DNA from: Okamejei kenojei
Lineage: Eukaryota
Direction: 5' to 3'
Length of the DNA stretch: 64,000 nt
NCBI GenBank assembly: GCA_035221665.1
Contig: CM069141.1
Span: forward strand, 48,112,001-48,176,000
Part shown: piece after piece, positions 6,302-50,870 of the stretch
Layout of the letters: each line of letters opens with the position of its first letter
How positions within the stretch are numbered: the stretch's first letter is position 1
Notes under the pieces: model-generated
Seen by the model: the letters and a program-made list of their open reading frames with translations, nothing else
The model's database searches: none
What the model was told of the DNA's origin: nothing
Made by a program: the position numbers and the translations under genes

Positions 6302-6450
6302 GCTTTAAGAAATGAGCTGAATTGTAATTGGTCGGATATGACTGCTGCATTGTCCACCAATCAGGAGGCCGGAGGCGACTGGTGATCTGCACAGCCCCTT
6401 ACAATACCCAGCGGCCATCGCGTCCGATCAGACGCCGTGAACACTGGATA
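6302..6450 (+). promoter_or_regulatory. Conserved promoter module of V2
   Basis: GCTTTAAG 6302, ATTGG 6327, CCAATCAG 6357, GATC 6384 followed by ACAGCCCC; CCAAT is 288 nt before the ATG. Confidence 0.8.
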
Positions 6451-6644
6451 GGCAGCAGCTCCGGACGGTTTCTGTTCGATTCATTTCGAACCGGATACAA
6501 CATCAGAACGATTAAATGAAAACATTGGAACAATTCGCAAAGGAGGTACAAACATTGTCTGCGTCGTATTTGTCTCATTTAAATCAAATCGCTGGCGAAA
6601 GGTGTTGGCTCGGGTTGAAACCATTGGAATGATTTCTACTGGAA

Positions 6645-9092
6645 ATGAGAGATAATATATATTGGCTGCTCAAATACCGACTATTTTGCTGCTTTTTCTG
6701 CCCCTGGGACCTTGTTTCTGGGCAGATTCGATATTCGATTCCCGAGGAATTGCAACTGGGTGCCTTTGTTGGAAATATCGCAATTGATTTGGGGTTAGAT
6801 TTAAAGCAACTCTCGGCTCGCAGTTTGCGGGTGGCGCCAGGCCTGAGGAAGCGAAATGTTGACTTAAATTTAGCAAAAGGGGTTTTATTTGTGAATGAGA
6901 GAATCGACAGAGAGCAGCTTTGCGGGCCGAGCATCGATTGCATTTTACCCCTGAACGTCGTGCTTGAAAATCCCCTCAGTCTTCACCAGGTGGAAGTGGA
7001 GATACTCGATGTAAATGACAATGCACCCAGTTTCCCCAAAAGTCAGATACGTCTTGAAATCTCAGAGAATATGGCACCGGGAGCGCGGTTCCCCCTCGAG
7101 GCCGCTCAAGATCCGGACATTGGGACGAACTCCTTGCAGACTTATCAGCTCCTTCCCAATGAGTATTTCATTCTTGATGTACAAGAACGTGCTAGGATAG
7201 GGGATTTACCGGTGTTAGTGCTGCAGCGGGCCCTGGATAGAGAAACGGCATCGACCCATGAATTAACAGTGCTTGCTGAAGACGGTGGAGTCCCTCTAAG
7301 ATCGGGTATGGTTCAGGTAACTGTCAGAGTGAAGGACGCGAACGACAATCCCCCTGTTTTCTCACAAGCGGTGTACAGTGTCAGTATGGTGGAATCGGCT
7401 CCCACAGGAAGTCTGATTATTAAGTTAAACGCCACTGATTTGGACGATGGCCCTAATGGTAAGATAACATATTCCTTCAGCGGCCATAACACTGCTGACG
7501 TTCGTGAATTAGTTGCCGTGAATTCTCAATCTGGTGAAATCAGACTGAAAGGGCATTTGGACTTTGAACAAAGCAAAACCTTTGTGATTAATATGGAAGC
7601 AAGCGATCATGGTTCTCCTTCAATGTCTCAACACTGTGATGTGTTGGTGGATGTTGTCGATGTGAATGACAATGCCCCTGAAGTGTCATTGACATCCATG
7701 TCCAGTGCAGTGGCTGAAAATGTTCCAATCGGAACCATTGTAGCCCTTCTCAGCGCAGAAGATAAGGATTCTGGACAGAACGGACAAGTAAAATGTCAAA
7801 TTCCGAATAAAGCCGCATTTAAGCTGGAAACATCAGTGAGGAATAATTGGAAACTGCTTGTACAACATGGGCTGGATCGTGAAACTATCCCCAGGTATGA
7901 CATCGTTGTGACATGCATGGATGCAGGGGAACCACCACTCACAACCAAGAAAAATATCCGTGTCGATGTTTCTGATGTAAATGATAACGCACCGAGATTT
8001 ACGCAAGCTGCATACACGGCAAATGTCATGGAAAATAACGTTATTGGTGATTCCATATTCGCCCTCACGGCCGACGATCCAGACACGGGACAAAACTCCC
8101 GATTAAACTTTACTATCCTGAATTCAGTCGTGGCCTCATATGTCTCAATTGACTCACAAAATGGTGTCATTTTTGCTCAGAAATCATTTGACTACGAACA
8201 ATTGAAAAACTTCCAGATCCATGTATTGGTGCGAGATTCTGGAGTCCCACCGCTCTCCAGTAACGTTACTGTGGACGTTGTTATCCTCGATCAGAACGAT
8301 AACGCTCCAGTGATCGTGAATCCTTTGCCCGAACTTGGATCAAATGTAATGGAGACAATATCCAGGTTTGCAGAACCAGGATACCTACTTGCCAAGGTAT
8401 CCGCAACTGACCACGACTCCGGTCAGAATGCCCGTCTGACTTATCATGTTTTTCAGGCCACCCACCGTAATCTTTTTACTATTTCAGAGGATACTGGGGA
8501 AATTTGGACCATCCGTGGCATTGAGACAAAGGATGCACCTGAACAAAGGCTGGTGATTGTTGTAAAAGATAATGGAATCCCGTCACTTTCAGCCACAGTG
8601 ACCATTGTTTTATCTGTGAAAGGAGGCGAAACGATATCCAGTGCCACCAATCTTTCTAAAGATCACGTCTTCGCTCCAGATTTGAACCTTTCCTTGGTCA
8701 TAGCTTTAGGAACGACGTCTACAATTTTCCTCGTGATTTTAATTATCCTGGCTGTCAAGGTTTATAAAAACAGAAATGGCGTGGAACGTCAATATGGTTC
8801 ACTGAACGTCTGCTGCTGTTTGGAGTCAATGAGTTCTCTGAATGGGATTCAAAATGCCAGCAGAAGTCTTCAAATACCACCGAACTACGTTGAGGTATTC
8901 GGAGGTGATCCGCTTTCGCAGAGTTACCGTTATGAGTCTTGTTCAACGTTGCAGTTTGCGAAGAGAGATTTAAGGACCACTCAAACGTCCGGGCTATCTA
9001 CAGCAATGGATTATAACCAGAAAAAAACGATTGGCAAAGAGAGCCCAGGAATGATAAGTTCTGAAAACTCAATCTGCCGTGCGACTAACGAT
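6645..9092 (+). CDS. Clustered protocadherin variable exon V2 (intact, 816 codons to donor)
   Basis: Signal peptide, QIRYSIPEE, EC1 C-x5-C, six EC repeats, TM, PPNYVEVFGGDPLSQ; donor GAT|GTGAGT at 9092/9093. Confidence 0.96.
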
Positions 9093-10217
9093 GTGAGTTA
9101 TTTCAACGAAAGATAAATAATTGGGTTGTAAACTCTGGCCATTGCAACTTCATTACCAGTTGTGCCGTGGTGGGGGGGGGGGGGGGGGGGGGGGTCATAT
9201 ATTCCATCTATGATCGAATGGTAAGAATACGTTTAGCTTAACTGATTAGTGTGGGTTCAAGGGATTTGACTTGGTTGATATCAAGGGACAATGGTGTGTT
9301 GAAGATGATGACATGACGGGAATATGTGGTGCTGTCAATGCTCTGCCGCTGTTATTTTTTTAGAATAAGAAAATGAGACATTGGAAATTCTTCTGAAGAA
9401 ACATCAGCGATTTATGGCAGTGTGGTCTATGACAGACTACATTAATATCTAAAGTACTCTTTGTAAAGGTAATTATTCTGTAAACATTTTTCTGGGGAGT
9501 ATTTTACTTTCTGAGATTTTTTGTCACCTGTCGAGGCAAATAGATGGTATTGCACGGTAGTCCGGATTAGCTCCATCTTAGTTGTGGAGAGCCTGTGTAG
9601 TGTCCCCAAAGCCCAAAGAAACACGCATGTAGTTTGCAGTCGCAACCAAAGTATGTATGTGGTCAGTCAAAAATGTTTGTGCTAAACAGGAGACATAAAT
9701 AAATAATGCAACGTGTTTTTTCGTTGTTATTTGCTTATGCACTTACATTTCTTGGTTGGGCATTTTTCGTTGAGATTCTGAGGAAGCATCAGTGGGATAT
9801 CCACTGCGTTCTGTGGAGGTCTGAATTAAATTTGAAGGCATTTTATTCACGGATAATCAAGTTGAAAGCTTGACCATGGCTAATGTTGAGCATACCACAT
9901 GTTGTTGCAGTTATATATCCAGGCATTTGTAAAATTTCTGAATCAAAATATTGCTTGGCAAATTCCAGGTGGCAGAAAAGCAGGGATCCTTATCGTCGCT
10001 CAAAGCACCATGACTGATGCCCTGTCAAGTCCAGAAAAAGATATGTAGAAAATTTAGCAGTTTCCAACATACGGTGAAACCATGTTGTTGGGATGTGAAT
10101 TTAGTAATGGAAGTATGACATAATTAGAGTAGAAGTTGGACTATCTGTTGCCAGGAATAGCTCTTTTCTACCAATTTTCATTATGTGCTATCTCAACGCA
10201 TCACCATTGTCTGGGAT

Positions 10218-10373
10218 GTAGACACAAAATGCTGGAGTAACTCAGCGGGACAGGCAGCATCTCTGGAGAGAAGGAATGTGTGGCGTCTCGGGTCGAAAAC
10301 CATCTTCAGACTGATTTACTCCAGCAATATGTGTCTACCTTCGATTTAACCCAGCATCCGAAGTTATTTCCTG
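10218..10373. mobile_element. Short non-autonomous Penelope pseudo-LTR derivative with internal inversion
   Basis: TAGACACAAAATGCTGGAGTAA ... TTACTCCAGCAATATGTGTCTA inverted arms; flanked by CACCATTGTCTGGGAT (10202-10217) and CACTATTGTCTGTGAT (10374-10389). Confidence 0.8.
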
Positions 10374-11742: not shown

Positions 11743-11890
11743 GCTTTAAGAAATGAGCTGAATTGTAATTGGTCGGATATGACTGCTACATTATCCACCA
11801 ATCAGGAGGTCGGAGGCGACTGGTGATCTGCACAGCCCCTTACAATACCCAGCCGCCATCGCGTCCGATCAGACGCCGTGAACACTGGAT
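11743..11890 (+). promoter_or_regulatory. Conserved promoter module of V3
   Basis: GCTTTAAG 11743, ATTGG 11768, CCAATCAG 11798, GATC 11825; nearly identical to the V2 module. Confidence 0.8.
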
Positions 11891-12085: not shown

Positions 12086-14535
12086 ATGAGAGATAATATA
12101 TATTGGCTGCTCAAATACCGACTATTCTGCTGCTTTTTCTGCTCCTGGGACCTTGTTTCTGGGCAGATTCGATATTCGGTACCAGAGGAATTGCAACTGG
12201 GTGCCTTTGTTGGGAATATCGCAATTGATTTGGGGTTAGATTTAAAGGAGCTCTCGGCTCGCAGAACACGAGTGGCGCCCAGCCCGAGGAAGCGGTATGT
12301 TGACGTAAATTTGCAGAATGGGGTTTTATTTGTGAATGAAAGAATCGACAGGGAGTTGTTTTGCGGGCCGAGCATAGAATGCATTTTACCCTTGAACGTA
12401 GTGCTTGAAAATCCCCTCGGTCTTCACCAGGTGGAAGTGGAGATACTCGATGTAAATGACAACGCTCCCAGTTTCCCCAAAAACCAGATCCGGCTTGAAA
12501 TCTCAGAGAATATGGCACCGGGAGCGCGATTCCCCCTCGAGGCCGCTCACGATCCGGACATTGGGACGAACTCCTTGCAGGCTTACCAACTCCTTCCTAA
12601 TGAGTATTTTACTCTTGATGTACAGGAACGTGTTAGGGTAGGAATTACACCGGTGTTAGTGCTGCAGAGGGCCCTGGACAGAGAAACGACATCGACCCAT
12701 GACATAACGGTGCTTGCTGAAGACGGCGGTGTCCCGATAAGATCGGGTACGGTACAGGTAACCATCAGAGTAAAGGACGCGAACGACAATCCCCCAGTCT
12801 TCTCGCAAGCGGTTTATAGTGTCAGTATGGTGGAATCGGCTCGCATAGGAAATCTGATTATTAAGGTAAACGCCACCGACTTGGACGATGGCCCTAATGG
12901 AGAGATAACATATTCCCTCACCAACCATAACTCTGCTGACGTTCGTGAATTAGTTGGCGTGAATTCGAAAACTGGTGAAATCAGGCTGAAAGGACATTTG
13001 GACTTTGAACAAAGCAAAACCTTTGTGATTAATATAGAAGCAAGCGATCATGGTTCTCCTTCAATGTCTCAACACTGTGATGTGTTGGTAGATGTTATCG
13101 ATGTGAATGACAATGCCCCTGAATTGTCATTAACATCTATGTCCAGTGCCGTTGCAGAAAATGCCCCAATCGGAACAATTGTCGCCCTTCTCAGCGTAGA
13201 AGATAAAGATTCTGGACAAAGCGGGCAAGTACAATGTCAAATTCCAAGTAAACTACCCTTTCAGCTGGAATCATCCGTGAAGAATAATTGGAAACTCCTT
13301 ATACAACACGGACTGGATCGAGAAACGAACTCGGGGTATGACATCACTGTGACATGCGCGGATGCAGGGGACCCACCACTCACTTCTCAGAAAGTTATCC
13401 GTGTAGATGTTTCTGATGTAAATGATAACGCACCGAAGTTTACGCAGGCTGCATACACGGCAAATGTCATGGAGAATAACGTTATTGGGGATTCCATATT
13501 CGCCCTCACTGCCTATGATCTAGACACGGGACTGAACGCCCGACTAAACTTTACAATCCTGAATTCAGTCGTGGCCTCATATGTCTCAATTGACTCACAA
13601 AATGGTGTCATTTTTGCTCAGAAATCATTTGACTACGAACAATTGAAAAAGTTTCCAGATCCATGTATTGGTGCGGGATTCTGGAGTCGCACCGCTCTCC
13701 AGTAACGTTACAGTGGACGTTGTTATCCTCGATCAGAATGATAATGCTCCAGTGATCGTGAATCCTTTGCCCGAACATGGGTCAACTGTAATTGAGACAA
13801 TATCCAGGTTTGCAGAGCCAGGATACCTAGTTGCCAAGGTATCCGCTGCTGACGCCGACTCCGGTCAGAATGCCCGTCTGACTTATCATGTTTTTCAGGC
13901 CACACACCATCATCTTTTTACTATTTCAGAGGACACAGGGGAAATTTGGACCATCCGTGGTATTGAGACAAAGGATGCATCGAATCAAAGGCTGGTGATT
14001 GTTGTAAACGATAATGGAATCCCATCGCTTTCAGCCACAGTGACCATTGTACTATTTATGGAAGGAAGCGACACGATATCCAGTGCCACCAGTCTTTCAA
14101 AAGATCACGTGTTCTCTCCAGATATGAACCTTTCCTTGGTCATAGCGTTAGGGACAACATCTATAATTTTCCTCTTGATTTTAATTATCCTTGCCATTAT
14201 GGTTTATAAAAATAGAAATGGTGTAGTACGCCATTACAGTTCTCTGAACGTCTGCTGCTGTTTAGAATCAAGGAGTTCTCTGAATGGGATACAAACGGCC
14301 AGCAAAAGCCTTCACTTACCACCAAACTACGTTGAGGTATTCGGAGGTGATCCGCTTTCTCAGAGTTACCGTTACGATTCTTGTTCAACGTTGCAGTCTG
14401 CGACGAGAGATTTAAGGACCCCTCAGACCTGTGGCCTATCTACAACAATGGGATATGTCCAGAAAACCCCTATTGGAAAGGAGAACCCAGGAATGATAAG
14501 TTCTGAAAACTCCAACTTTCGTGTGAAATAACGAG
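12086..14535 (+). CDS. Clustered protocadherin variable exon V3, two apparent +1 frameshifts (pseudogene or assembly error)
   Basis: ORFs 12086-13705 and 13668-14531 together give a full paralog. Extra base at ~13652 (AAAAAGTTTCCAG vs AAAAACTTCCAG in V2) and at ~14527 (GTGAAATAACGAG vs GTGAATAATGAG in V1). Donor GAG|GTGAGT at 14535/14536. Confidence 0.85.
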
Positions 14536-17667: not shown

Positions 17668-17839
17668 NNNNNNNNNNNNNNNNNNNNNNNNNNNNNNNNN
17701 NNNNNNNNNNNNNNNNNNNNNNNNNNNNNNNNNNNNNNNNNNNNNNNNNNNNNNNNNNNNNNNNNNNNNNNNNNNNNNNNNNNNNNNNNNNNNNNNNNNN
17801 NNNNNNNNNNNNNNNNNNNNNNNNNNNNNNNNNNNNNNN
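17668..17839. other. Assembly gap
   Basis: Run of 172 N. Confidence 1.
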
Positions 17840-17844
17840 ACAGT

Positions 17845-18230
17845 CAGGAACTTTTTCCCCGGGGCAGAAATGTAAAAGACGAGGTGGGGGGGGGGGGGGG
17901 CACAGCTTTAAGTTCAGAGGGTGAAAGATTGAGGGAGAGATGCGGGGTATTTTTCTTACAGAGGGTGGTGATTGGCTGGGACGTGCTACCAGGAGGTTTT
18001 CCTGTAGGCAGACGCAATAATGGTGTTTAAAGGTCTTTTGGATAGTTTAGTTTAGTTTATTGTCACGTATACCGAGGTACAGCGGAAAACATCTGAATAC
18101 GCTGGGAATGGGGCGGGATATGTATTATGTGTAGGCAGTTGTGATTAGTCTAGCTTGGCATTCTGCTCGGCACAGACATTGTGGGTCACGGGCCTGTTTC
18201 CGTGTTGTATTTTTCTATGTTCTATGTTCA
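17845..18230 (+). mobile_element. Degenerate CR1-type LINE 3' end
   Basis: GGGCACAGCTTTAAG...TTCTTACAGAGGGTGGTG...GGGCCTGTTTCCGTGTTGTAT ending in TTCTATG repeats. Confidence 0.55.
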
Positions 18231-18968: not shown

Positions 18969-19120
18969 GCTTTAAGAAACGATGTGCACGGGGATTTGCT
19001 GAATATCAATGCGCCCGTATTCACCAATCAGAAGCCAGGTTGGGCTTGGTGATCCGGACAGCCCTCGACATTGCCCACCCACTCTTACGTGAGATCAGAA
19101 GCGGTGAAGAATTGAATGGC
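18969..19120 (+). promoter_or_regulatory. Conserved promoter module of V4
   Basis: GCTTTAAG 18969, ATTTG (variant) 18994, CCAATCAG 19024, GATC 19051 followed by ACAGCCC. Confidence 0.78.
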
Positions 19121-19318: not shown

Positions 19319-21772
19319 ATGAGGTACAAAGTATATTGGCTGCTAAAATGTCGATTGCTCTGCTACGTCTTCTCTTCATGGGGTATGGTTTCGGGGACGA
19401 TTCGCTATTCGATTCCTGAGGAGCTGCAACTGGGCGCCTTTGTTGGGAACCTCGCACTCGATTTGGGTTTAGATATAAATCAGCTATCGACACGAGGTTC
19501 CCGCATCGTGGCCGGTTCTAAAAAAATATATATGGACATCAATTTGGACAATGGAATTCTCTTTGTGAAGAAAAAAATCGACAGAGAACAGCTATGTGAG
19601 TCAAGTCTCTTTTGTTTATTATCCTTCGATGTTCTGTTGGAAAATCCGCTGAAATTGTACCCGATTTCAGTGGACATTCTCGATGTAAATGACAACGCTC
19701 CTATTTTCCCGGAAAACCAAATCAGCCTTGAAATTTTAGAGCTGGCTGCACTGGGAACCCGTTTCCTCCTCGAGTCTGCCGATGATGCCGATGTTGGAAC
19801 CAACTCCTTACAAACGTACAAGCTCCAGCCGAACGAATATTTCTTCCTCGATGTGCAGACGCGCAGTGGAAGTGAAATGTTACCAGTATTGGTGTTACAA
19901 AGGTCCTTGGACAGAGAAAAACAACCCGTCCACAAATTGGTCTTGGTAGCAGAAGATGGCGGTGTTCCTTTAAGATCGGGTACCGTTCAGGTTACTATAA
20001 CAGTGAATGATGCAAACGATAACGTGCCTATTTTTCCTCAGTCGGTATACAGGGTCAGCCAGCTAGAGTCTGCACCAAAAGGAACGCTTATTATCAAATT
20101 AAACGCCACTGACCTGGACGATGGCCCCAACGGGGAGATAATGTACTCCTTCAGCAGTCATAATTCAGCAAGAGTACGTAAACTTTTTGATGTTAATTCC
20201 AAAAATGGTGAAATTAGACTGAAAGGGAATTTGGATTACGAGGAAAGTAGCACAGTTCAGATGAACATACAAGCAATTGATATGGGTTTAAACGCAATGG
20301 CTGGGTATTGTGATGTGTTACTAGGCATTATTGATGTCAATGATAACGCACCTGACGTGACGCTCACGTCTCCGTCGAGTAAGGTTTTGGAAGATGCCCC
20401 TAATGGGACTGCAGTGGTATTGTTCAATGTAGAAGACAAGGACTCGGCCCAAAATGGACAAGTTCAATGCCAAATTTCAAACACTCTGCCCTTTCGACTA
20501 GAATCGACTCTGGGGAATTATTACGAGCTCTATATTGATCAGCCGTTGGATCGCGAGAATACCTCTAACTATGATGTGACTATAACATGCACGGATTCAG
20601 GGATCCCTCCTCTCTCATCCAAGGCAACGGTTCGTGTAGAGGTTACAGATGTAAATGACAACGCACCACGATTTTTGCACCCCTCGTATACAGCAAACGT
20701 CATGGAAAATAACGTTATTGGTGCTTCTATATTACGTTTGAATGCCATCGATCCAGACGCAGGACACAATGCCCGATTGAAATTTTATTTTCTGGAGTCC
20801 ACGCTTCAGGACACACAAGTGTCGTCTTATGTATCGATTAACTCAACGAGTGGAGTCATATTCGCCGAGAGATCATTTGACTACGAACAGTTGAAACACT
20901 TCCGCGTCCAGGTTCAGGTGCAGGATTGTGGAGTCCCACCGCTCACCAGTAACGTTGCAGTGGACGTTGTTATCCTCGATCAGAATGATAACGCCCCAGT
21001 CATCGTGAGTCCTTTGCCGGAATATGGGTCAACAGTCATGGAGACAATTCCCAGATTTGCCGAACCTGGATACCTTGTGGTCAAGTTATCAGCTATAGAT
21101 GCTGACAATGGTCAAAATGCCCTTCTCGTTTTCCAAATTTATCAGGCTACCCATCACGACCTTTTTACTATTTCGCCAGAGACTGGCGAAATTTGGACTA
21201 CCCGACGAATCATGAGCAGGGATGCTTCCAAGCAAAGACTGGTGATTGTGGTAAAAGATAGCGGCAGTCCTCCTCTTTCAGCTTCTGTGACGATAATGTT
21301 GACTGTAGCAGGCAGTCACAGTCAAACATTCTCCAGTATCAACAGTGTTACTAAAAATACCGGATTCACTTTGGATCTGAGCTTTTCCTTGGTCATAATC
21401 TTAGGAATAACATCCAGCGTGTTATTTGTTATTTTAGTAATACTCGGATTTATTGTTCATAGAAACAGACAAGGATTGGGAGGGCAGCGCTGTTCCCTGG
21501 GCGTTTGTTGTTGTTTTGGAGCAGGGGCATCTCTGAATGGAATTCAAAAGGCCAGTAGAAGCCTTCAGATCCCTCCTAATTATGTAGAGGTATTTGGGGG
21601 CGATCCACTTTCTCAACGATTTCGATACGAATCGTGCTCAACGTTGCAATCGACGAATGCCAAAGCGTGCGGGCAACCTGCAGACAATCATTATGTCCAG
21701 AGAGAGTTTTTCAGGAAAGGCAAGTCTGAAAAGGGGAAGTTGAACAATTGCAGCAGCACTGTAAACAACGAG
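19319..21772 (+). CDS. Clustered protocadherin variable exon V4 (intact, 818 codons to donor)
   Basis: Full signal/6EC/TM/cytoplasmic ORF; donor GAG|GTGAGA at 21772/21773. Confidence 0.96.
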
Positions 21773-28169: not shown

Positions 28170-28320
28170 GCTTTAAGAAATGCCCATGGCAGAGATTGGT
28201 CGAACTTGAGGGATTCCGTTTGCCAATCAGAAGCTGTGATGTGACTGGAGATCTGGACTGCCCCCTTTCCTCCTCATCCACCATCACAGACATTCATACA
28301 GTGTGAATCTGAATGGCGGA
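28170..28320 (+). promoter_or_regulatory. Conserved promoter module of V5
   Basis: GCTTTAAG 28170, ATTGG 28195, CCAATCAG 28223, GATC 28250 followed by GACTGCCCCC, CCACCAT 28278. Confidence 0.8.
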
Positions 28321-34158: not shown

Positions 34159-34300
34159 GCTTTAAGAAGCGAACATTGTTCTGATTGGTGCGCCGCCAAC
34201 AACCAATCAGCAGCTACTGTGTGACTGGAGATCTTGACTGCCCCCTTTTCCCTCCCACCATCACATACGAACAAGGAACAATGTAAATTGGACAGCGAGG
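34159..34300 (+). promoter_or_regulatory. Conserved promoter module of V6
   Basis: GCTTTAAG 34159, ATTGG 34184, CCAATCAG 34203, GATC 34230 followed by GACTGCCCCC, CCACCAT 34255. Confidence 0.8.
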
Positions 34301-34522: not shown

Positions 34523-36990
34523 ATGAGATGTTATAACCTATTTTGTTGCTTAAAATGGGAACTGTTGTATTACATGTTTATCGGCCTGGGAGATAATTTT
34601 CGCAGAGATTCATTACTCGATTCCTGAAGAATTACAAAGTGGCGCCGTTATTGGGAACATCGCGGACGATTTAGAGTTGGATGCTGAACAGCTCGCAGCT
34701 CGTAATTTTCGTTTGGTTTCAGGTCCAAAAAAGCGGTATTTGGAAGTAAATTTAAACAATGGGATTTTGTCTGTGAAGGAGAGGATTGACAGAGAAGAGC
34801 TGTGTGGCGCAAGCCTCACTTGCGTTCTGTCTTTGGAGGCCGTGCTTGAAAATCCTCTCAGTCTGTACCAAATCGAAGTGGACATTGTGGATATTAACGA
34901 CAACTCTCCCAGTTTTCCAAAAATCCAATTCCGCCTTGAAATCTCTGAGAATACTGCGCCGGGAGCGCGATTCATTCTCGACGCCGCTCACGATCTAGAT
35001 ATTGGAACTAACTCTGTTCAAACTTACCAACTCGTTACAAATGAGTACTTTGCATTAAATGTTGACTATGGAATCGCAGATTTGAAATTACCAGTTTTAG
35101 TGTTGGAAGAGCCTTTAGACAGGGAAAAGCATTCGACCCACAGATTACTGCTCTTAGCCAAAGATGGCGGAGTCCCAGAAAGGACAGGCTCCGCCCAAAT
35201 TAACGTCGTGGTAGAAGATGCCAACGATAATGCGCCGGTGTTCTCTCGGTCGGTTTACAAAGTCAATTTGTGGGAAAATGCGACAAAAGGGGCATTGGTA
35301 CTTCAAGTAAATGCCACTGATTTGGATGATGGCCCCAATGGAGAGATTGTGTACACTTTAAGTACCCATACCTCTGCCAGCGTCCGTGAGATTTTTAGCG
35401 TGGATTCTCGAACTGGTGAAGTAAAACTTAATGCCAATTTAGATTACGAAGAAAATAATGCTTTTGATATTATTATTCAAGCAAAGGATAAGGGATCTAA
35501 CGCCATCCTGGTGTACACTCATATTTTGCTGAATGTTTTAGATGTAAACGACAACGCGCCTGAGATAAGCTTGACTTCTTTGTCGAGCCCTGTTTCAGAG
35601 GATTCGTTACCTGGAACAGTGATAGCTCTCATAAGTGCGTCTGACAGAGATTCTGGCAAGAATGGGCAACTCCAGTGCCAAGTTGAAAACGAAGTGCCTT
35701 TCGCACTCGATTCATCGTCCAAGAAGCACTTAAAACTACTCACCCAGCAACCTCTAGATCGCGAATCCGCCTCCACACACAACGTAATAATCAGCTGTAG
35801 AGATGAAGGCAGTCCGCCTCTCGCCACGAACAAAAGCATCCGAATTGAGGTGTCGGACAGGAACGACAACGCACCCCAATTCTCGCAACCTTCCTTCACA
35901 GCCTACGTGACGGAGAATAGTAATATTGATGCCTCGATATTCTCAGTGATGGCTTTTGATCCAGACGAAGGTGAAAATGCTCGGCTGGCGTACAACATTC
36001 TGGACAGTTGGGTACAAGCTCAGTCGGTACATAATTATGTTTATATTAAAGCAGAGACTGGTGCAATATATTCCTACATATCATTTGACTATGAAAAGTT
36101 AAAACACTTTCAGATCCGTGTTCAGGCACATGACAATGGAGTCCCACAACTCTACCAGCAATGTCTCCGTAGATGTTATCATCCTTGACCAGAATGATAA
36201 CGCCCCGGTGATCGTTCATCCAATAATCGAGCATGGGCAACCTGCCACAGAGGCTGTATCCCGTTTTGCGGAAGCAGGCTATCCGGTGACCAAAGTTATG
36301 GCTACAGATGCTGACTCTGGTCCAAACGCTCGCCTCTGCTATCGGATCCTCCAAGCTACAGACATGGGACTATTTACTATTGCTGAGGAGACGGGGGAAA
36401 TATGGACAACCCGTGCTGTTACAACGACAGATGCTACCAAGCAAAGGCTGGTGGTCCAAGTCAACGACAACGGGATACCAGCTCTTTCAACTTCGATAAG
36501 TATAATCTTGTCATTCATAGATGACGAGGGATCACTAATGTCCGACAGGAACAGCATGTTGGAAAGGCCCAAATCTGATTCTGTTACCAGCTTCTACTTG
36601 GTCATTTCACTAGGAATAATTTCGACTATTTTTCTGGTAATTTTAATTATTCTAGCTGTTAAAGTTCACAATGGCAGAGATGCCTTTGAGTACCATGGCT
36701 GTCTTCTGGGCCCATGTGGTTGCTTCGGGTCAAGACATCCCCGCAACGGAATCCAGAAAGCCAGTCGCAACCTACGCATTCCTCCCAATTACGTTGAGGT
36801 ATTTGGGGGAGACCCGCTATCACAGAGTTACCGCTATGAAACTTGTTCCATGGCACGTTCAACAAAGGGAAACCTTTTGTTCCCCAACACCTGCAGTTCA
36901 TCAAATGGAAATGCCAAAACCATCGGTGAAGTTATTGCAAAGGGAGGAACCGTGTTGTTCAGTAATTGTGAGAATTATGTTCATTCTGAG
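34523..36990 (+). CDS. Clustered protocadherin variable exon V6, two apparent +1 frameshifts (pseudogene or assembly error)
   Basis: ATG 34523 (MRCYNLFCCLKWELL). Extra base at ~34578 (ATGTTTATCG) precedes AWEIIFAEIHYSIPEE; extra base at ~36153 (CTCTACCAGCAAT). Donor GAG|GTGAGA at 36990/36991. Confidence 0.85.
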
Positions 36991-38276: not shown

Positions 38277-38430
38277 GCTTTAAGAAATGTGGAGTGCAGA
38301 GATAGGTTGAAGTTAAGTCAGCCTTTTCCACCAATGAGAGGCTGTTATGTGCCCGGAGATCCTTGCTGCCCAACCCTCCCCTTCCGCCATTATATCCGTC
38401 TGGATACCGTGTAACATGGATAGAGCTGTG
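38277..38430 (+). promoter_or_regulatory. Conserved promoter module of V7
   Basis: GCTTTAAG 38277, ATAGG (variant) 38302, CCAATGAG 38331, GATC 38358 followed by CTGCCC, CCGCCAT 38384. Confidence 0.78.
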
Positions 38431-38646: not shown

Positions 38647-41082
38647 ATGGAATTTTATAAACGATATTGGCTATTGAAATGGCAACTTTTTTACTGTATT
38701 TTCCCTTCCTGGCAAATTATTTCTGGACAGATACGTTATACGATTCCTGAAGAATCGAATGCCGGAGCTTTTGTTGGAAATATCGCAGAGGACCTGGGTT
38801 TGGATATAAAAGATCTCTCGGCTCGCGGCTTTCAAATTGTGCCTGGACCTAGCAAGGAGTATATAGACGTAAATTTAGATACTGGTGTTTTGTTTGTGAA
38901 GGAAAAGATGGACAGAGAACAGTTGTGTGAGCAGAATCGTGTTTGCGCATTCTATATGGAGGCAGTGATTGAAAATCCTCTGAATGTATACCATTTCCAA
39001 GTGGACATTTTGGATGTAAATGACAATGCGCCGAGATTTCCCGAGACCCAGTTCAATTTGGATATATCGGAGCTGGCTGCTCCGGGTACGCGCTTCGCCC
39101 TGGAGCGCGCAGACGACCCGGACGTTGGCACCAATTCGGTACAAAGCTACCGGCTGGTAGACAACGGCTATTTCTCCCTCGACGTGGAAACGTTGGGCGG
39201 CGACGGAAAGATACCGGTTTTAGTCTTGGAAAGACCGCTGGACAGAGAAAAGGACAGCACGCACAGGTTGGTGTTGATAGCGAAAGACGGAGGGATTCCT
39301 GAGCGATCTGGAACTGCCGAAATACTGATCCGTGTAGAGGATGCCAACGACAACGCGCCTGTTTTCTCCCAGCCCATCTATAGGGTCAGTTTGCCAGAGA
39401 ATGCACCATTAGGTATATTGGTGATAAAATTAGATGCCTCAGATTTGGATGTTGGTCTGAATGGGCAGATAGTATATTCGTTCGGCAGTCATACTTCGAA
39501 TCGAGTTCGGGAACTTTTTGTGCTGGATTCGAATAGTGGCGAAATCAGAGTTAAGACCACTTTGGATTACGAGAAAAATAGTGTTTTTGAGATTAATGTT
39601 CAAGCGAAAGATAAGGGTACTAACGCCACCCCCGTGTACTGCCACGTGGTCGTCAATATCGTTGATGTGAATGACAACGCTCCTGTGATAACGCTGACAT
39701 CTTTATTCAGTCCTGTCGGGGAAGACGCTCTACCGGGGACTGTTGTGGCTTTGATCAGTTCCACAGACAAGGATTCGGCTGAAAACGGGCACGTGGATTG
39801 CGAAATCCCAAATGACCTTCCCTTTAAACTGGATTCGTCCTTAAATAACTATTATAGACTAGTTACCCGGGAAACGCTGGATCGTGAACGTGTGTCATCT
39901 TACAATGTAACTGTGGTGTGTGGCGACGCCGGGAATCCTCCGCTAACATCGAACAAAACGGTCCTGGTGGAAGTCTCCGATATAAACGACCATCCGCCTC
40001 AATTCACACAGCCTGTGTATACAGCTTACGTGATGGAGAATAATGTAATCGGTGCGTCAATATTCACGGTGACAGCTTTGGATCAAGATCTAAATAGGAA
40101 CGCCCATCTGTCCTACTTTATTTTGGAGACTCAGATACAGGGCATGTCAATATCCACATACGTCTCCATTAACTCTCACAGTGGGGTCATATTTTCGCAG
40201 AGGAGTTTCGACTACGAACACCTCAAAGGATTTCAGGTCCAGGTTCAGGCGCGGGACTCTGGGATCCCATCACTTTCTGGCACCGCCTCAGTGGATGTGA
40301 TGATATTGGACCAGAATGACAATGCTCCGGTGATCGTGCATCCGTTACCCGAATTCGGTTCCACCGTGTTAGAGACGATATCCCGGCACGCAGAACCAGG
40401 CTACCTGGTCGCCAAAGTTTCGGCTACAGACGGTGACACTGGCCAAAATTCTCGCCTTTCCTACCAGATCTGTCAAGCTACAGATGCCGGTCTCTTCACC
40501 ATTTCACCGGACACAGGAGAAATCTGGACAATACGCAATATTAGGAAGAATGACGCCGCCAAGCAAAGGTTGGTCATCTGTGTTAATGATGACGGATCAC
40601 CGCCTCTTACAGCCACTGTGGCAATCGTCTTGTCTTTAGTTGGAAATGATAGACAAATGCTCTCAGATGTGAATAATTTGTCTGAGGGTGCCGGCTTTGC
40701 TTCTGGCACCAGCTTTTATCTTGTAATAACTTTAGGGATCACATCATCCGTTTTTCTATTGATATTGATTATCCTCGCCATTAAGGTCCATAGAAACTCT
40801 TACCTTGGCGCATGTGGTTGTTTTACAGCAAGAAACCCATTGCACAGAGCCAACAGAAGCCTTCAGATACCACCAAACTATGTTGAGGTATTTGGAGGTG
40901 ATCCTCTTTCGCAGGGTTTCCGCTATGATTCATGCTCAAGTTCACATTCTGTAAAGAGGGATGTCAGGTTGTCCAACGGTGGATCTACGCGTAAGAATTA
41001 CGCTCCTGGTGGCATTTTGGGAAATGGCGATACATTGCAAACCCTCAATTCAGCACAGTACAGGAACACTCTAAATAACGAG
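38647..41082 (+). CDS. Clustered protocadherin variable exon V7 (intact, 812 codons to donor)
   Basis: ATG 38647 (MEFYKRYWLLKWQL), six EC repeats, TM, PPNYVEV; donor GAG|GTGAGG at 41082/41083. Confidence 0.96.
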
Positions 41083-42195: not shown

Positions 42196-42345
42196 GCTTT
42201 AAGAAATGTCCTGGGTGGTGATTGGTTGAACGTCAGTTCACCAATCAGAAGCTGCAATGTATCTGGTGATCTTGACTGCCCCCTTCCCTCCCAGCCACCA
42301 TTACGTATGATCAGATACAATGTAAAACTCCGCATCGCGAGCTGC
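42196..42345 (+). promoter_or_regulatory. Conserved promoter module of V8
   Basis: GCTTTAAG 42196, ATTGG 42221, CCAATCAG 42241, GATC 42268 followed by GACTGCCCCC, CCACCAT 42295. Confidence 0.8.
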
Positions 42346-42552: not shown

Positions 42553-44997
42553 ATGGGATATTTTAAAATATGTTGGCCGTTGAAATGGTCACTTTTTTAC
42601 TATGTATTATCACCCTGGGTTCTGGTTTCGGGGCAGATTCGCTATTCAATGCCTGAAGAACTGCAAATGGGTGCCTTTGTTGGAAATATCGCCGACGATT
42701 TGGATTTAGACGTGAAAGAGCTGGCTGCCCGCAGTTTTCGGATTGTGTCTAGTCCCAGGAAGCAGTATCTGGATGTAAATTTGGACAATGGAATTCTTTA
42801 CGTGAAGGGGGAAATTGACAGGGAGCAGCTCTGCGGGTCGAACCCCGTGTGCACATTGTTCTTAGAGGCCGTGATTGAAAATCCGTTGACGGTGTATCAT
42901 TTTCAAGTCGAGATTCTGGATGTAAATGACAACGCCCCCCGTTTCCCCCATACCCAATTCCGCCTGGAAATCTCGGAGGTTGTGGCGCAAGGGGCGCGTT
43001 TTGCCCTCGAGTCGGCACAGGACCCAGATGTCGGAAGCAACTCCGTTCAGACGTACCAGTTGGGCGATAACGAGTATTTCATCATAGATATTCAGTCACG
43101 CCGTGGAGATGGCAAGTTGCCGGTATTAGTGTTACAAAGGCAACTGGACAGGGAGAAACAAACGAGTCACAAGTTAGTCCTGATTGCCAAGGACGGAGGC
43201 ATCCCACAAAAATCTGGGACGGCTCAGATAATTGTCATAGTGCAGGATGCGAACGACAATGCGCCGGTGTTCCAGCAATCGGAATACAGGACGAGGCTGC
43301 GGGAAAACACTCCCAGGGGAACCCTGGTAATCAAACTCAACGCTACTGATTTGGACGACGGTGCCAATGGAGAGATTGTGTACTCATTCAGCAGTTATGC
43401 CTCCAGCAGAGTCCGTGAAATGTTCAGCGTGGATTCTAGAACCGGGGAAATCAGGGTTAAGGGCAACTTGGACGCCGAGGAAAACCACGTTTTTGAGATC
43501 AACTTACAAGCTACGGATAGGGGATCTTATGCAACTCCTGTACACTGTGAAGTGTTGGTGGATGTTATTGACACCAATGACAACGCCCCCGAAGTGATAT
43601 TGACTTCTGTATTCAGTCCTGTCAGCGAGGACGCCTTGCCTGGCACAGTAGTCGCCCTCTTTAACGTGGATGACAAAGACTCGGGAGATAATGGACAGGT
43701 ACATTGCCAAATTTTAAGTGGTTCTACTTTCAAACTAGATTCCTCTTTGTCGAACTATTACAGATTACTGACCGAGCTGCGGCTGGATCGCGAAAATGTC
43801 TCAAAGTATGATGTTACAATTGTATGCACAGATAGAGGAGACCCACCACTCGCGTCCAAGAAATCGATCCGGGTGGAAATTTCCGACGTAAATGATAATG
43901 CCCCACGTTTTGCACACCCTTCATACACCGCCTACGTAACCGAGAACAACGCTATTGGGTCTTCTATCTTCTCAGTGACAGCTTTTGATCCCGATGTAAA
44001 CCAGAACTCTCAATTGACTTACTCGATCGTGGAAACATGGGATCAGGACTTGCCAGTATCCGCTTACGTGCTTATTAATTCGGAAACTGGCGTCGTATAT
44101 GCTCAGAAAACTTTTGACTACGAACAAATGAAAGGTTTCCAGCTCGATATACAAGCACAGGACTCTGGAACTCTACCGCTGAGCAGCAACGTTTCTGTGG
44201 ATGTCATTATCCTCGATCAAAATGACAATGCTCCAGTCATCACCCATCCACTGCCAGAGTACGGATCTACGGCTGTAGAGACTGTGTCGAGGTTCGCGGA
44301 ACCTGGTTACCTGGTCGCCAAGGTGTCCGCAACCGACGCAGACTCCGGCCAGAACGCTCGCCTCACTTATCAGATTTTAAAAGCTACAGACACTGGCCTT
44401 TTTACCATTTCGGCAGACACGGGGGATATATGGACAATCCGCGGCGTCCTGGACAAAGATCAGAGGAAGCAACGTTTGGTCGTTGCTGTAAAAGACAACG
44501 GAGAGCCGGCACTCTCAGCTATTTTAACGATCATGATCTCCCTGGAACAAAGTCAATCAGAACTGTTGTCCGAGGTAGACAGTTTATCGGATGAAGCAGT
44601 TTGGGCTCCGGTCACGAGCTTTTACTTGGTCATAGCCTTGGGATTAATTTCTGTCATCTTTCTAGCAATTTTGATTATCCTCGCTATTAAAGTTCACAAA
44701 AACAGACGTGGCTTTGATGATCGTAACTCCTGTTGTTTTGTGACAAGAGGTCGAAAGGCGAATAGGAGCCTTCAGATACCCCCAAACTACGTTGAAGTAT
44801 TTGGGGGTGACCCACTTTCTCAAAGTTACCGCTACGGTACCTGTTCAACTTCAAACTCTATCAAGCGAGACTCCATGTTCCGCCGCACTTGTAGCTCACC
44901 TACTGTCAGGAATAACGTCAATGCATACCCAGTCAGGAAGGAAGAGATACCACCAGTAACAAACCCTGCAATCTGTAGAGGCATTATCAATAGTGAG
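42553..44997 (+). CDS. Clustered protocadherin variable exon V8 (intact, 815 codons to donor)
   Basis: ATG 42553 (MGYFKICWPLKW), six EC repeats, TM, PPNYVEV; donor GAG|GTGAGA at 44997/44998. Confidence 0.96.
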
Positions 44998-46597: not shown

Positions 46598-46740
46598 GCT
46601 TTAAGCAGTGCATCGGACGGCCATTGGTTGAATGCGAGCAGGGACGCGTTCACCAATCAGAAGCCCCAATTTTGCTGGAGATCTCTCCCTATCCACCATC
46701 ACGTAAGATCAGCCACAGTGTAAAATGGCCAGCGAGCTGC
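46598..46740 (+). promoter_or_regulatory. Promoter module of V9 (lacks the ACTGCCCCC box)
   Basis: GCTTTAAG 46598, ATTGG 46623, CCAATCAG 46653, GATC 46680, CCACCAT 46693. Confidence 0.78.
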
Positions 46741-46947
46741 GGAAAGCTGTATCTGGTTCCGAGCATGCATTTTTGGATGATTTTAGAAATAGGAACATCT
46801 GCATTAGTTAATGTGTGGATTGTCAAACTGCACAGGTATTTTTTTTACAAATTATAGCTGTAAAATTATGTAGAAAGACGTTTATTAAGACGGTTTCACG
46901 AACGGAGCAGGGCTGCGCTGAGGCATTTGAAATGTTTTTCGCTGGAA

Positions 46948-49423
46948 ATGGGACATTGTAGAATATATTGGTTGGGAAAATGGCATCTGCTGTACTATCT
47001 GTTCTCCTTCTGGCCTCTGGTTTCGGGACAAATTCGTTATTCCATTCCCGAAGAACTGCAGCTTGGTTCCTTTGTTGGTAATATCGCAGAGGATTTGGGT
47101 TTAGATGCGAGAGAGCTATCGGCTAGAAAATTTCGCATCGTGCCCGGGATCGGCAAAACATATTTGGACGTGAATTTAGACAATGGGATTTTGTTTGTGA
47201 AGGAACGTATCGACAGGGAGCAGCTTTGTGGATCGAGCCTTACTTGCCTTTTACCCATGGAAGCCGTGGTGCAAAATCCTTTAAATGTCTATCGGGTCGA
47301 AGTGGAGGTTTTAGACATAAATGACAATGCTCCCCGTTTTCCAAAGAATCAGTTCCATCTTGAAATCTCTGAATTTGCGTCGCCGGGTGCCCGCTTCCCC
47401 CTCGAGTGCGCGCACGATTCAGACGTGGGAAGCAACTCCCTACAAAGCTATCGCCTGGTTGGAAATCCGTACTTCGCGCTCGACATTGAGACCCGCAGTG
47501 GGGATGAGAAGCTGCCGGTGTTAACGCTGGAGAGGGCATTGGACAGAGAGAAAGAACCAACTCACAAGTTACAACTAATTGCAAAAGACGGTGGGATCCC
47601 TCCAAAATCAACCACTGCTGAAATACTAATCGCAGTACAGGATGTGAACGACAACTCTCCGGTGTTCTCGCAGTCGGTGTATAGGGTCAGCCTACATGAA
47701 AACGTGCCCAAAGGAACACTAGTAATAAAGCTTAATGCCACTGACTTGGACGATGGTTCTAATGGGGAGGTAGAATATTCCTTTACCAGCCACACCTCCG
47801 CCTCGGTACGTGAACTGTTTGATCTACATTCCAAAACGGGGGAAATCACAGTGAAGGGAAATTTGGACAATGAGTTAGACCGTGCCTTCGAAATCAACGT
47901 CCAGGCAACAGATAAGGGCTCTGCCCCACTACCTGTGTACTGCCGTGTTCACGTGGATATTACAGACGAGAACGACAACTCTCCCGAGGTGACGGTAACT
48001 TCTTTATTCAGCCCAGTTAGCGAAGACTCACCTCCGGGGACCGTGATAGCGCTTGATTAGCACTACAGATAAAGACTCTGGGAAAAACGGAGAGATTGAT
48101 TGTCAAATTTCAAACGGCCTTCCCTTTAAGCTGGAATCGCCCTTAACAAACTATTACAAACTGTTAACCGTGGGCCAATTGGATCGCGAAAGTATCCCCA
48201 AGTACGATGTCACTGTACTTTGCACTGATTCAGGATCGCCCCCACTTACTTCCAAGAAGCTCATGCAGGTAGAGATCTCGGATGTAAATGACAACGCGCC
48301 TCGTTTCAGCCAATCTTCATATACAGCTTATGTGATGGAGAACAACGCCATAGGAGCCTCGATCATAACAGTGACTGCTTCAGATCGTGATATGAACCAG
48401 AATGGCAAACTATCTTATTCCATTCCCGGAGACCAGATCCACGGTGTGTCGGTAGCCAGCTACGTGTACATTAACTCAGAGAATGGAATGGTATTTTCGC
48501 AAATAAGTTTTGATTATGAGGAGCTCAAAAGCTTCCAGTTCCAGGTTCAAGCACGGGATAGCGGAGTCCCGTCACTCACGGGCAATGTTTCCGTGGAGGT
48601 TGTTATTCTTGACCAGAACGACAATGCCCCGGTTATTGTCCACCCATTGCCTGAACGTGGATCAACAGTCATGGAGACCATGTCTCGCTCTGCAGAACCA
48701 GGTTATTTGGTTACCAAAGTGTCGGCCATGGATGCTGACTCGGGTCAGAATGCTCGCCTCTCCTACCAGATCGGCCAAGCCACTGATCCGGGACTGTTCA
48801 CCATTTCACCTGACACGGGCGAGGTGTGGATTATCCGTGGATTGGTACAGAAAGATGCGACCAAGCAAAAGCTAATCATTGTGGTGAAAGACAACGGAAC
48901 ACCGTCGCTATCAGCTTCCATGACCATCAGTTTATCGGTGATGGATGGGGATGCCCAGCTACTGTCTGATGTCTCTGGTTTTCTCGACGATGCTGCTTTC
49001 AAGTCCGCGTTGAGTTTCTACTTGGTGATATTTCTGGGGGCAATTTCATCAATTTTTCTGCTGATTTTAATCGTCCTCGCCGTGAAGGTCCATAAAAACA
49101 GGAGTGGCTTTGGTGTTTACAGTTGTTACGGGGACGTCTGCTGCTGTTATAGACCAAGACGTTCTTTCAATGGGATTCAGAAAGCCAGCAGAAACATTCA
49201 GATACCTCCAAACTATGTGGAGGTGTTCGGAGGCGACCCGCTTTCTCAAAGTTTTCGCTATGGAACTAATTCGACTTTAGGTTGCACTAAGAGAGACTCA
49301 CGGTTTCCCGACACGTGTAGTTCATCCGCAATGGCATATAAAGGAGGGGGTGGGCCTAATGAGAAATACGATTACCTGCACTCGCAAGCTCCTGCAAATG
49401 ATAGAAACACTGTAAATGCTGAG
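46948..49423 (+). CDS. Clustered protocadherin variable exon V9, one apparent +1 frameshift (pseudogene or assembly error)
   Basis: ORFs 46927-48060 and 48053-49468 join at ~48051 (ATAGCGCTTGATTAGC vs GTGGCTTTGATCAGT in V7). Donor GAG|GTGAGG at 49423/49424. Confidence 0.87.
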
Positions 49424-49794
49424 GTGAGGTGTTCCTTAAGAAGGGAAATAGCTACCTCACCAGTCTGATCTAGTTGCGATTATTTGCAATTGAACATATT
49501 GTTGACGCTTTCTGTTTGGTGATATGAAGTTAAGTGTGATAACTCAAAATCATAACCACAAAGTACTTTGTTTTTACTTTTGTGTCTTTAAGCAATCTAG
49601 CTATTCTGTTGTGATTCTATTTGAATGAGATAAGGGTAATTGGTGATAAAACGCGGTCGTTAGCGACGGAAGTGTCACCAAATTTTAAAGCACGCATAAT
49701 TTACTATGATTCAGGGAACAGTACAGGAAACAAGTTAAAGTAATCAAAATGAAATCTATTGCATATGTGCAATAATTTCATCAACCCACTTTTG

Positions 49795-50320
49795 TAGAAA
49801 CAAAGAATTGCAGATACAGGTAAATATAAAAACGCCAGAAAGTGCTGGAGTGACTCGGCAGGTCAGGTAGCATCAATTGAGTACATGCATAGCTGATGTT
49901 CCGGGTCCAGACCGTTCTTCGGACACTGTAGGAAGGAAATACAGATTGTAATTTGCACCGAAGATGGACACACAGTCCTGGAGTAACCAAGTGGGTCAGG
50001 CAGCATCTCTCGAGAAAGGGATTAGGTGACGTTTCTGGTCGAACCCCTTCTTCAGACTAAGACTCAGGGGAAAGGGAAATTAGAGGTATTAAAAGGTTCC
50101 GAACTAATCAGAGCTGGTACAGATGACCAAGGAAAGGTGGAGCCCACAATAGTCCTGGGTTCTTCAGACTGTTCTTTTTTCTGTATTTTCTAATGTGATT
50201 TTGAAAGAATATGCAGCGTATAAAATGTTGGAGTAAATCAGCGGATCAGGCAGATCCTGAGTTCCGCCTGTACTTTGTATTTTGCTCATGATTCCAGCAT
50301 CTGCAGGCCATTGTATCTCT
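49795..50320. mobile_element. Cluster of Penelope pseudo-LTR derivatives (tandem, mostly minus orientation)
   Basis: Repeated CTGGAGTAA...GGTCAGGCAGCATC...GACGTTTC...CTTCTTCAGAC units. Confidence 0.7.
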
Positions 50321-50700
50321 ACCCTGCGTATAAAGCTGTGCCGACTCTAAATCGAACCCTGTTAATGTTGTCGCAGCCGTATTTTATAATTATATTAGCT
50401 GTTGATCTTTTTTCTTGGCAATATCACAGTTCTGTGGTAAATAGAAGCATCAAAAACATCTTAAATAAGAAGTCACGTGAATGTAACACACTTGGCAGAA
50501 TATTGAAACAATTCAATGGGAAGAACTAGCTGAGCATCGTTTGTCATGGGAACGTGCACTTATTTTATAGGCAATGCATAAAATGTATGGGAACTATTGA
50601 AATCCTTTTAAGCGTGGCATTTAAATCTCCAAACCAACAGATTCAAATGTAGGCTGTGCAACTTTAAATATTGGGATTCCACCGTTGAATTGGTGCCTCT

Positions 50701-50870
50701 GCTTTAAGAGACGAAGTCTCTTGTGATTGGTTGTTGGCGAATGTAGCTGTATTTACCAATCAGAAGCTGAACTGTGAATCGAGATCCCGACAGCCCCTTT
50801 TGCCTGCCCTATCCCTTATCCGCCATCTCTTCTGACCGGATACAAAATGAATTTGGATTGGGAGCTGCCT
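50701..50870 (+). promoter_or_regulatory. Conserved promoter module of V10
   Basis: GCTTTAAG 50701, ATTGG 50726, CCAATCAG 50756, GATC 50783 followed by ACAGCCCC, CCGCCAT 50820. Confidence 0.8.

Follow-up and report, generated by a model that had tools for sequence, protein, structure and literature searches.

Protocadherins (Pcdh) are neuronal self-recognition genes, and in mammals CTCF picks which one is switched on; the Pcdh diversity of single neurons relies on CTCF sites at alternate promoters. In mammalian clustered Pcdh promoters the CTCF site corresponds to the CGCT box of the CSE. Clustered Pcdh promoters without a CSE are already known, namely those of mouse ac2, b1, gc4 and gc5 and of Xenopus g2 15-36. 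The CTCF site is absent in ac2, gc4 and gc5, while gc3 has one, and the alpha CSEs of zebrafish and Xenopus have no CGCT box. The Xenopus genes which group with gc4/gc5 have no CSE and carry another 13-bp motif. CCAAT-based promoters are a further point of reference, as NF-Y is described in excerpts of PMC6624317 and PMC11269187 as acting at promoters in activation, nucleosome exclusion and start-site placement. Together with PMC7793273, these sources locate NF-Y at a median of 94 bp upstream of start sites, report that it maintains a nucleosome-depleted region and attribute to it helical and partner-distance preferences.

The skate Pcdh-nu locus

The window, a stretch of 64,000 nucleotides from the skate Okamejei kenojei, is the 3' end of a Pcdh-nu (gamma-like) subcluster. 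Its variable exons splice to nu constant exon 1 (VKQPNADW...), the feature that defines Pcdh-nu membership; this first constant exon is 59 nucleotides long and located at 61553..61611 of the plus strand (VKQPNADWHFSHANRAELN). By constant exon and tree it is the same subcluster as the Pcdh-nu subcluster of the elephant shark (Yu et al. 2008). The tree of EC1-3 covers seven of the nine window genes (V3 and V6 excluded) without mammalian C-types and without an outgroup, and unites them with the C. milii nu proteins in one 11-row clade with an SH-aLRT of 95. V5, V7, V8, V9 and V10 each pair with their own white-shark isoform with starred support, and the copies are therefore old. At the sequence level, the nu proteins appear most similar to C-type Pcdhs, since among solved clustered-Pcdh ectodomains of the same length ac2 and gc3 outrank the other EC1-3 chains and gc4 comes first among EC1-4 chains in 3/3 queries; this is a similarity ranking in which the non-clustered PCDH10 outscores the C-types, and in the tree nu forms its own clade.

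The exons, all on the plus strand, are numbered V2 to V10 after an earlier note on this DNA, with V1 denoting the 3' part of a variable exon at 1..1143 whose donor lies at 1141 (GAG/GTGAG) and whose promoter is beyond the window. The earlier note counted nine complete genes, which does not apply to three of them as they are frameshifted in this sequence: V3 (12086..14535) carries a single frameshift near 13650, V9 (46948..49423) a single one near 48053 although its Amblyraja orthologue is full length, and V6 (34523..36990), which has a long branch and is possibly a pseudogene, is frameshifted near 34583 and again near 36153. Intact are V2 (6645..9116; 823 aa to the first stop, donor pattern unmatched), V4 (19319..21772), V5 (28517..30976; clustering with Amblyraja, Rhinoraja and Carcharodon isoforms), V7 (38647..41082; 93% identity to an Amblyraja radiata isoform) and V8 (42553..44997; 97% to a Leucoraja erinacea isoform over EC1-3). 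The last variable exon, V10 (51068..53380), is likewise intact and uses an early splice donor to give ..QNCCYE/VKQPN, like its Pristis orthologue.

The four-box promoter module

One copy of a module composed of GCTTTAAG (box 1), ATTGG (box 2), CCAAT (box 3) and GATC (box 4) lies upstream of each of the nine variable exons that start in the window, and the full pattern occurs nine times on the plus strand and not once on the minus strand. The modules, all on the plus strand, are located at 6302..6387 in V2 (box 1 at 6302, ATTGG at 6327, CCAAT at 6357, GATC at 6384), 11743..11828 in its recent twin V3, 18969..19054 in V4, 28170..28253 in V5, 34159..34233 in V6, 38277..38361 in V7, 42196..42271 in V8, 46598..46683 in V9 and 50701..50786 in V10. 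In simulation (60 windows, third-order Markov) the full pattern never occurs (mean 0), and the means for its first and second halves are 0 and 0.017. A profile HMM of the module recovers the same nine only, the next match having an E of 0.29, and no orphan or decayed copies were found in the window; a tenth GCTTTAAG at 17905 directly follows an N gap and has no module. Comparison with Rfam gave 0 matches, and in the three of nine modules that were inspected for inverted and direct repeats there are none in common except the two CCAAT boxes.

The distances within each half of the module had been described correctly, with GCTTTAAG and ATTGG 25 nucleotides apart in 9/9 promoters (box 2 reads ATTTG in V4 and ATAGG in V7), CCAAT and GATC 27 nucleotides apart in 9/9, and every coordinate given for them accurate. 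The rigidity ascribed to the whole does not hold, as only two of the three intervals are fixed and ATTGG and CCAAT are separated by 19-30 nucleotides (30, 30, 30, 28, 19, 29, 20, 30 and 30 from V2 to V10). Similarly, the position of 290-320 nucleotides before the ATG suits CCAAT (288-316, and 320 in V6 with its ATG at 34523) and not GCTTTAAG, which lies at 343-370. The boxes also extend beyond the limits first drawn, to GCTTTAAGAAAYG, CCAATCAGAAGC and TGGWGATC, and there are extra conserved boxes both upstream and downstream; judged by its sequence, the four-box unit is a portion of a homologous promoter that is longer. After the CCAAT/GATC part come pyrimidine/GC-rich boxes and a CCRCCAT box; the CTGCCCC box 3' of GATC is deleted in V9. 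In V2 the further boxes span 6412..6460 of the plus strand (CCRCCAT, GATCAG, GTGWAMA and TGGAYAGCGAGCTGC), likely the start-site zone given the usual position of NF-Y, and the CCRCCAT box is YY1-like. All nine leaders contain an out-of-frame upstream ATG, at 6629..6631 (-16) of the plus strand in V2.

The two CCAAT boxes of the module face away from each other. To the 3' of each there is a candidate partner box whose position does not vary, CTTAAAGC for the minus-strand CCAAT (+22..+29) and GGWGATC for the plus-strand one (+24..+30). Box 3 matches the extended NF-Y consensus YRRCCAATSR with 0-1 mismatch in 9/9 promoters. The CCAAT core of box 2, read on the minus strand, is intact in 7/9 and broken in V4 and V7, both of which have intact ORFs, so that twin NF-Y binding would not be obligatory. 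The partner boxes match none of the motifs with which they were compared. For boxes 1 and 4, MHC class II X-Y, ERSE, DPE, CHR, BCL6 and TCF elements were rejected by eye, on their consensuses, as having the wrong sequence or distance.

Readings of the module

The reading favoured here, to which we give a probability of roughly 55%, is that of an inherited NF-Y-type twin-CCAAT proximal promoter of C-type-like genes which would set activity and start site and would have no part in promoter choice. It is favoured because the module is found in 9/9 promoters and nowhere else, its boxes are nearly invariant while the spacer cores have diverged, the copies are old, the NF-Y consensus fits, no CTCF match is common to the promoters and the proteins resemble C-types, several of which have no CSE. 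The module would form the 5' portion of proximal promoters that are paralogous to one another, having been tandem-duplicated along with each nu variable exon, and selection may have maintained it from a time before sharks and rays diverged. NF-Y would always occupy box 3 and in most cases box 2, keep the region nucleosome-free, cooperate in a fixed geometry with two partner factors and place the start site about 60-110 nucleotides downstream of box 3. Binding and start-site placement of this kind would imply that the module confers promoter competence and level and does no selecting among promoters. The absence of a CSE would be a state like that of C-type genes and probably ancestral. It predicts that nu isoforms are broadly co-expressed or used in a manner graded by cell type, and stochastic choice, if any, would arise from methylation or enhancer contacts outside the boxes. 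A far bolder extension, which we consider unlikely, is that the nu array of cartilaginous fish has no CTCF sites and relies on an NF-Y module of mirror symmetry and two stereo-positioned partner factors, that clustered-Pcdh promoters were ancestrally of this design and tetrapods have retained it at C-type genes only, that choice by CTCF and cohesin came later, and that shark and ray neurons co-express nu isoforms or choose among them by an undescribed route.

A doubtful alternative is that choice depends on CTCF as in mammals, by way of degenerate sites in the promoters or eCBS-like sites in the exons about 650-900 nucleotides downstream of the module, and that the CCAAT module is basal only. 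The earlier note had seen no CGCT/CTCF-type CSE, and this is upheld to the extent that the nine promoters have no common CTCF core under a CTCF matrix run in sharp and softened, anchored and unanchored form without a positive control on real CSEs, which are degenerate. Only 1/9 promoters has a match of at least 8 bits, in reverse orientation, and none is common to them; the mean best score is 0.96 bits against 2.32 in shuffles, the best anchored median is -6.8 bits, and a forward match of that strength is present in none of the nine. A CGCT box at a common position about 200 nucleotides 5' of the ATG was not found, the single one being at -203 in V8; within 500 nucleotides CGCT is present on the plus strand in 6/9 promoters, but its most common position (-32, in the leader) is shared by only 3/9, and a relaxed CSE-like pattern fits 0/9. 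For comparison with the alpha-type eCBS, a forward site about 700 bp downstream, the exons have nine weak matches of at least 8 bits at +335..+627 in 5/9 of them where synonymous resampling expects 2.65 (P 0.003 for a post hoc window), yet over the whole exon P is 0.06, or 0.23 without the twin V3, the strands are mixed and V5-V8 have none. A AGGGGGCAGTC half-site 3' of GATC in V5, V6 and V8 (4.9-7.8 bits, softened matrix) also speaks for CTCF, but it is reverse-oriented and deleted in V9. What lends the alternative weight from outside the window is the CGCT element stated for the elephant shark cluster in an excerpt of PMC2926608, for which Yu et al. 2008 (PMC2268768) is cited, and the CTCF orientation bias and loop extrusion described for skate in an excerpt of PMC10115646. 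A search of the window for the NRSE, using patterns from PMC2926608, found neither a canonical TTCAGNACCANGGACAG site, with as many as 2 mismatches allowed, nor a non-canonical one; the GATCAG...TGGAYAG pair, considered as spaced REST half-sites, has a loose likeness only and failed the published pattern.

The spacers had been called diverged, which is true of their cores, whose identity of 0.35 (10 nucleotides) and 0.42 (8 nucleotides) is at the level of four-fold synonymous sites (0.39), and not of the whole 17-nucleotide spacers (0.46 and 0.54); the boxes are nearly invariant across the nine promoters. The fixity of the 25- and 27-nucleotide spacings is suggestive, at a nominal P of 0.01-0.05 and of 0.14 after look-elsewhere. 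It seems rather improbable that the boxes are functional and the rigidity a matter of shared ancestry only, with box 1, which we take to resemble a TATA element, acting independently, possibly for a divergent upstream transcript. The free spacer cores sum to just 18 nucleotides, for which the P of no indel is 0.08-0.20, and box 1 is perfect in V4 and V7 despite their broken box 2; however, the adjacent intervals of 22-40 free nucleotides each underwent at least 4-5 length changes in 8 lineages, by minimum-event counts that understate the rate, and the TATA fit requires two mismatches on either strand. The proposal of the earlier note that an NF-Y-centred complex governs promoter choice is reasonable, on sequence, in naming NF-Y as the likely binder, whereas a role of the module in choice is unsupported, as the boxes hardly differ among the nine promoters, and thus hold no gene-specific information, and as the left CCAAT is broken in 2/9. 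We regard it as very unlikely that an enhanceosome, centred on NF-Y and including two partner factors, replaces CTCF as a stochastic choice device. The invariant partner boxes at mirror positions and the two fixed spacings would suit such a device, as would the two different deletions of 10-11 nucleotides between the CCAAT boxes of V6 and V8, which would preserve helical phase, and the promoter CpG observed/expected of 0.72-1.17 against 0.70 in the window makes methylation gating possible. However, the core boxes have no CpG to methylate, V6 may be a pseudogene, stochastic choice of nu isoforms is itself hypothetical, and because gaps of 9-12 nucleotides make up 8/41 gap runs in the alignment, finding 2 of 4 in the middle spacer is unremarkable; helical phasing of this spacer reached no significance.

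Comparison with known promoters

The CCAAT design and the lack of a clear CTCF site hint, at the level of sequence, at a different regulation of the nu group. If a gamma-like array of sharks and rays indeed has no CTCF sites, this would date the origin of the CTCF-based mechanism and raise the question of whether a large isoform array works without it; should CTCF prove to bind, the module is a CCAAT promoter of the ordinary kind. The nine natural variants, among them two with a broken CCAAT box and two with a deletion of one helical turn, may provide a tractable handle on CSE-less promoters such as that of gc4, the isoform described in an excerpt of PMC6957209 as crucial for neuronal survival. 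No description of CCAAT modules in chondrichthyan Pcdh promoters was found in the literature searched, which did not extend to Yu 2008, Noonan 2004 and Wu 2005, and the excerpts on CSE-less Pcdh promoters describe no multi-box CCAAT module, unlike what is seen in nu.

Like nu, mammalian clustered Pcdh genes have one promoter per variable exon with a common motif about 200-350 nucleotides 5' of the ATG, and the nu module shares with them a fixed spacing of sub-elements, SSE-CSE spacing being critical in mammals according to an excerpt of PMC3333863. The boxes themselves differ, as those of nu are CCAAT-based with no common CGCT box or CTCF core. The genes of Xenopus pcdh-g2 15-36, like those of the nu array, lie in one uninterrupted tandem block and have a motif of their own. 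Among NF-Y promoters, the best-described partners, USF, TALE and AP-1, are placed 10-12 bp 5' of CCAAT, whereas the nu partner boxes lie 22-30 nucleotides away on the 3' side. Twin-CCAAT NF-Y promoters resemble nu in having two CCAAT boxes, a GC/CT-rich tract, a downstream YY1-like box and fixed partner distances.

The skate nu subcluster

Ten protocadherin variable exons, the partial V1 and V2-V10, stand in tandem on the + strand of the window, together with a single constant exon of 59 nt (61553-61611, + strand) whose translation VKQPNADWHFSHANRAELN agrees with the nu tail VKQPNADWRHSQAHRVEVN. V7 shares 93% identity with an Amblyraja radiata isoform and 62-64% with Callorhinchus nu8, nu9, nu13, nu15 and nu17, and in a tree that took seven window genes (V3 and V6 excluded) these share a clade of 11 rows (SH-aLRT 95) with proteins of C. 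milii, of which three bear the name nu. The window represents the 3' end of a skate Pcdh-nu, gamma-like, subcluster; bony vertebrates are described as lacking an orthologue of the nu subcluster (PMC2764143). In chondrichthyan nu isoforms an identical first constant exon is followed by either of two C-termini, a ..HALRQIND-type (P0002, P0047, P0025) or a ..FITFGKKKK-type (P0083, P0109, P0018), which suggests alternative constant-exon splicing.

Frameshifts are present in this sequence near 13650 (V3), 34583 and 36153 (two in V6) and 48053 (V9). The one in V9 is possibly an assembly error, since the Amblyraja orthologue is full length, and V6, which forms a long branch in the tree, may be a pseudogene. 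V10, the last variable exon, appears short because of an early donor (53378-53386) giving a shorter variable cytoplasmic segment, likewise found in the Pristis and Carcharodon orthologues. The V1-V2 interval holds a retroelement-like ORF (3159-4274) that matches reverse transcriptase weakly, at a level below cut-off (Pfam RVT_1, E 0.00076). Between V3 and V4 lies a 172-nt N gap (17668-17839), which could hide more exons, followed by repeat-like DNA with a tenth GCTTTAAG.

The conserved promoter and its spacing

The earlier note had described a rigid four-box unit upstream of V2-V10, consisting of box 1, box 2 (ATTGG), box 3 (CCAAT) and box 4 (GATC), and every box coordinate it claimed is correct. 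The full pattern occurs nine times on the + strand of the window and never on the - strand, is absent from 60 simulated Markov windows, and a profile HMM found no tenth copy. Because the middle spacing from box 2 to box 3 varies (30, 30, 30, 28, 19, 29, 20, 30 and 30 nt in V2-V10), what remains of the rigid unit is two rigid half-modules, box 1 to box 2 (25 nt) and box 3 to box 4 (27 nt). The homologous promoter extends beyond the boxes, and other blocks in it are conserved both upstream (TGYRCAAC) and downstream (CTGCCCC, CCRCCAT, GATCAG, GTGTAAA and TGGAYAGCGAGCTGC). All nine leaders also carry an out-of-frame ATG at exactly -16 from the main ATG (6629, 12070, 19303, 28501, 34507, 38631, 42537, 46932 and 51052), which opens a frame of 4-39 codons overlapping the main start and is possibly a conserved translational brake. 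No earlier description of the module was found in the literature searched, outside which lies the primary elephant shark paper (Yu et al. 2008).

Since the promoters are paralogues, recurrence of the module taken alone proves only common descent. V5, V7, V8, V9 and V10 each pair with their own white-shark isoform with starred support in a tree using 25 of 120 retrieved proteins, which places the variable-exon duplications before the shark-ray split, roughly 270-300 Myr ago. Box 1 does not vary and boxes 2-4 have identities of 0.90-0.97, while the spacer cores stand at 0.35 and 0.42 compared with 0.39 at four-fold synonymous sites (eight genes, V6 excluded); the boxes are clearly under constraint. 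Rigidity of the spacing is suggestive. Over eight lineages (V2 dropped as the twin of V3) and hand-curated interval lengths, both 17-nt spacers would stay free of indels with a probability of 0.009-0.046 (0.02 by event scattering) and the 18 nt of free core with one of 0.08-0.20, and the chance of any two among seven intervals remaining unchanged is 0.14; as these values use minimum-event rates, the true P is probably smaller. Between the CCAAT boxes V6 lacks 11 nt and V8 lacks 10 nt in different places, deletions which would preserve helical phase; this has no significance, because 8 of the 41 alignment gap runs are 9-12 nt long and V6 is a possible pseudogene.

NF-Y, CTCF and the role of the promoters

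Box 3 matches the extended NF-Y consensus YRRCCAATSR with 0-1 mismatch in all nine promoters. In box 2 the CCAAT is inverted; seven of the nine copies are intact, and the two broken ones belong to V4 and V7, whose ORFs are intact. Partner boxes mirror one another in position, each 3' of its CCAAT, with CTTAAAGC at +22..+29 and GGWGATC at +24..+30, and no factor match was named for either. We propose, with a probability of about 0.55, that the module belongs to an inherited proximal promoter, built on twin CCAAT boxes and driven by NF-Y, whose state is C-type-like and without a CSE (the CSE being the CTCF-binding element of mammalian clustered Pcdh promoters). Such a promoter would make each nu gene competent, set its level and place its start site, and promoter choice would lie outside its role. 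The earlier note had suggested that an NF-Y-centred complex may serve promoter choice itself, which we regard as improbable. Only slightly less doubtful is the reading that the spacing is due to ancestry and that box 1, which loosely resembles a TATA box, is an independent TATA-like element; the higher of the indel probabilities speak for it. The median NF-Y site is 94 bp upstream of a start site, which NF-Y holds nucleosome-free (PMC6624317). NF-Y also shows helical positional preferences (PMC11269187) and keeps set distances to many of its partners, 10-12 bp 5' of CCAAT for the best described (PMC7793273).

Hidden or exonic CTCF, unlikely in our judgement, is nevertheless the strongest of the alternatives, and the lack of a visible CTCF-type CSE remarked on in the earlier note is supported, within the limits of the matrix used. 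With an MA0139.1-like matrix, run without a positive control, one of nine promoters (V7, -196, reverse, 9.8 bits) reaches the threshold of 8, a value applied to skate in PMC10115646 on a score scale that may differ, and an anchored scan of the nine gives a best median of -6.8 bits. Best scores average 0.96 in promoters versus 2.32 in dinucleotide shuffles; softening the matrix brings these to 5.94 and 5.38, and 13 of 60 shuffle sets then score as high as the promoters. CGCT occurs on the + strand of six of nine promoters, at a common position (-32) in three, and a window scan found no NRSE. Three results make the absence less than clean. In V5, V6 and V8, GATC is followed by a reverse AGGGGGCAGTC half-site; a CGCT element in the elephant shark cluster is attributed to Yu et al. 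2008 in PMC2926608; and nine matches of at least 8 bits, the window's strongest, lie at +335..+627 in five of nine exons (6980, 7086, 12421, 12527, 12658, 19946, 47392, 51492 and 51654), on mixed strands and with none in V5-V8. Synonymous resampling predicts 2.65 of these (post hoc P 0.003, rising to 0.06 when the whole exon is counted and to 0.23 without V3), and their location is roughly similar to that of alpha-type exonic CTCF sites.

CSE-less relatives

For EC1-3 queries from V2, V7 and V10 (3/3), ac2 and gc3 score above other EC1-3 chains, gc4 scores above other clustered EC1-4 chains and non-clustered PCDH10 scores above all three, a ranking of similarity and not of phylogeny. Mouse ac2, b1, gc4 and gc5 are without a CTCF site according to PMC7811963 and PMC7087399. 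In PMC4978886, zebrafish and Xenopus alpha CSEs are without a CGCT box, and Xenopus g2 15-36 group with gc4/gc5, being without a CSE and carrying a different 13-bp motif. Given these precedents, a missing CSE in the nu promoters need not surprise.
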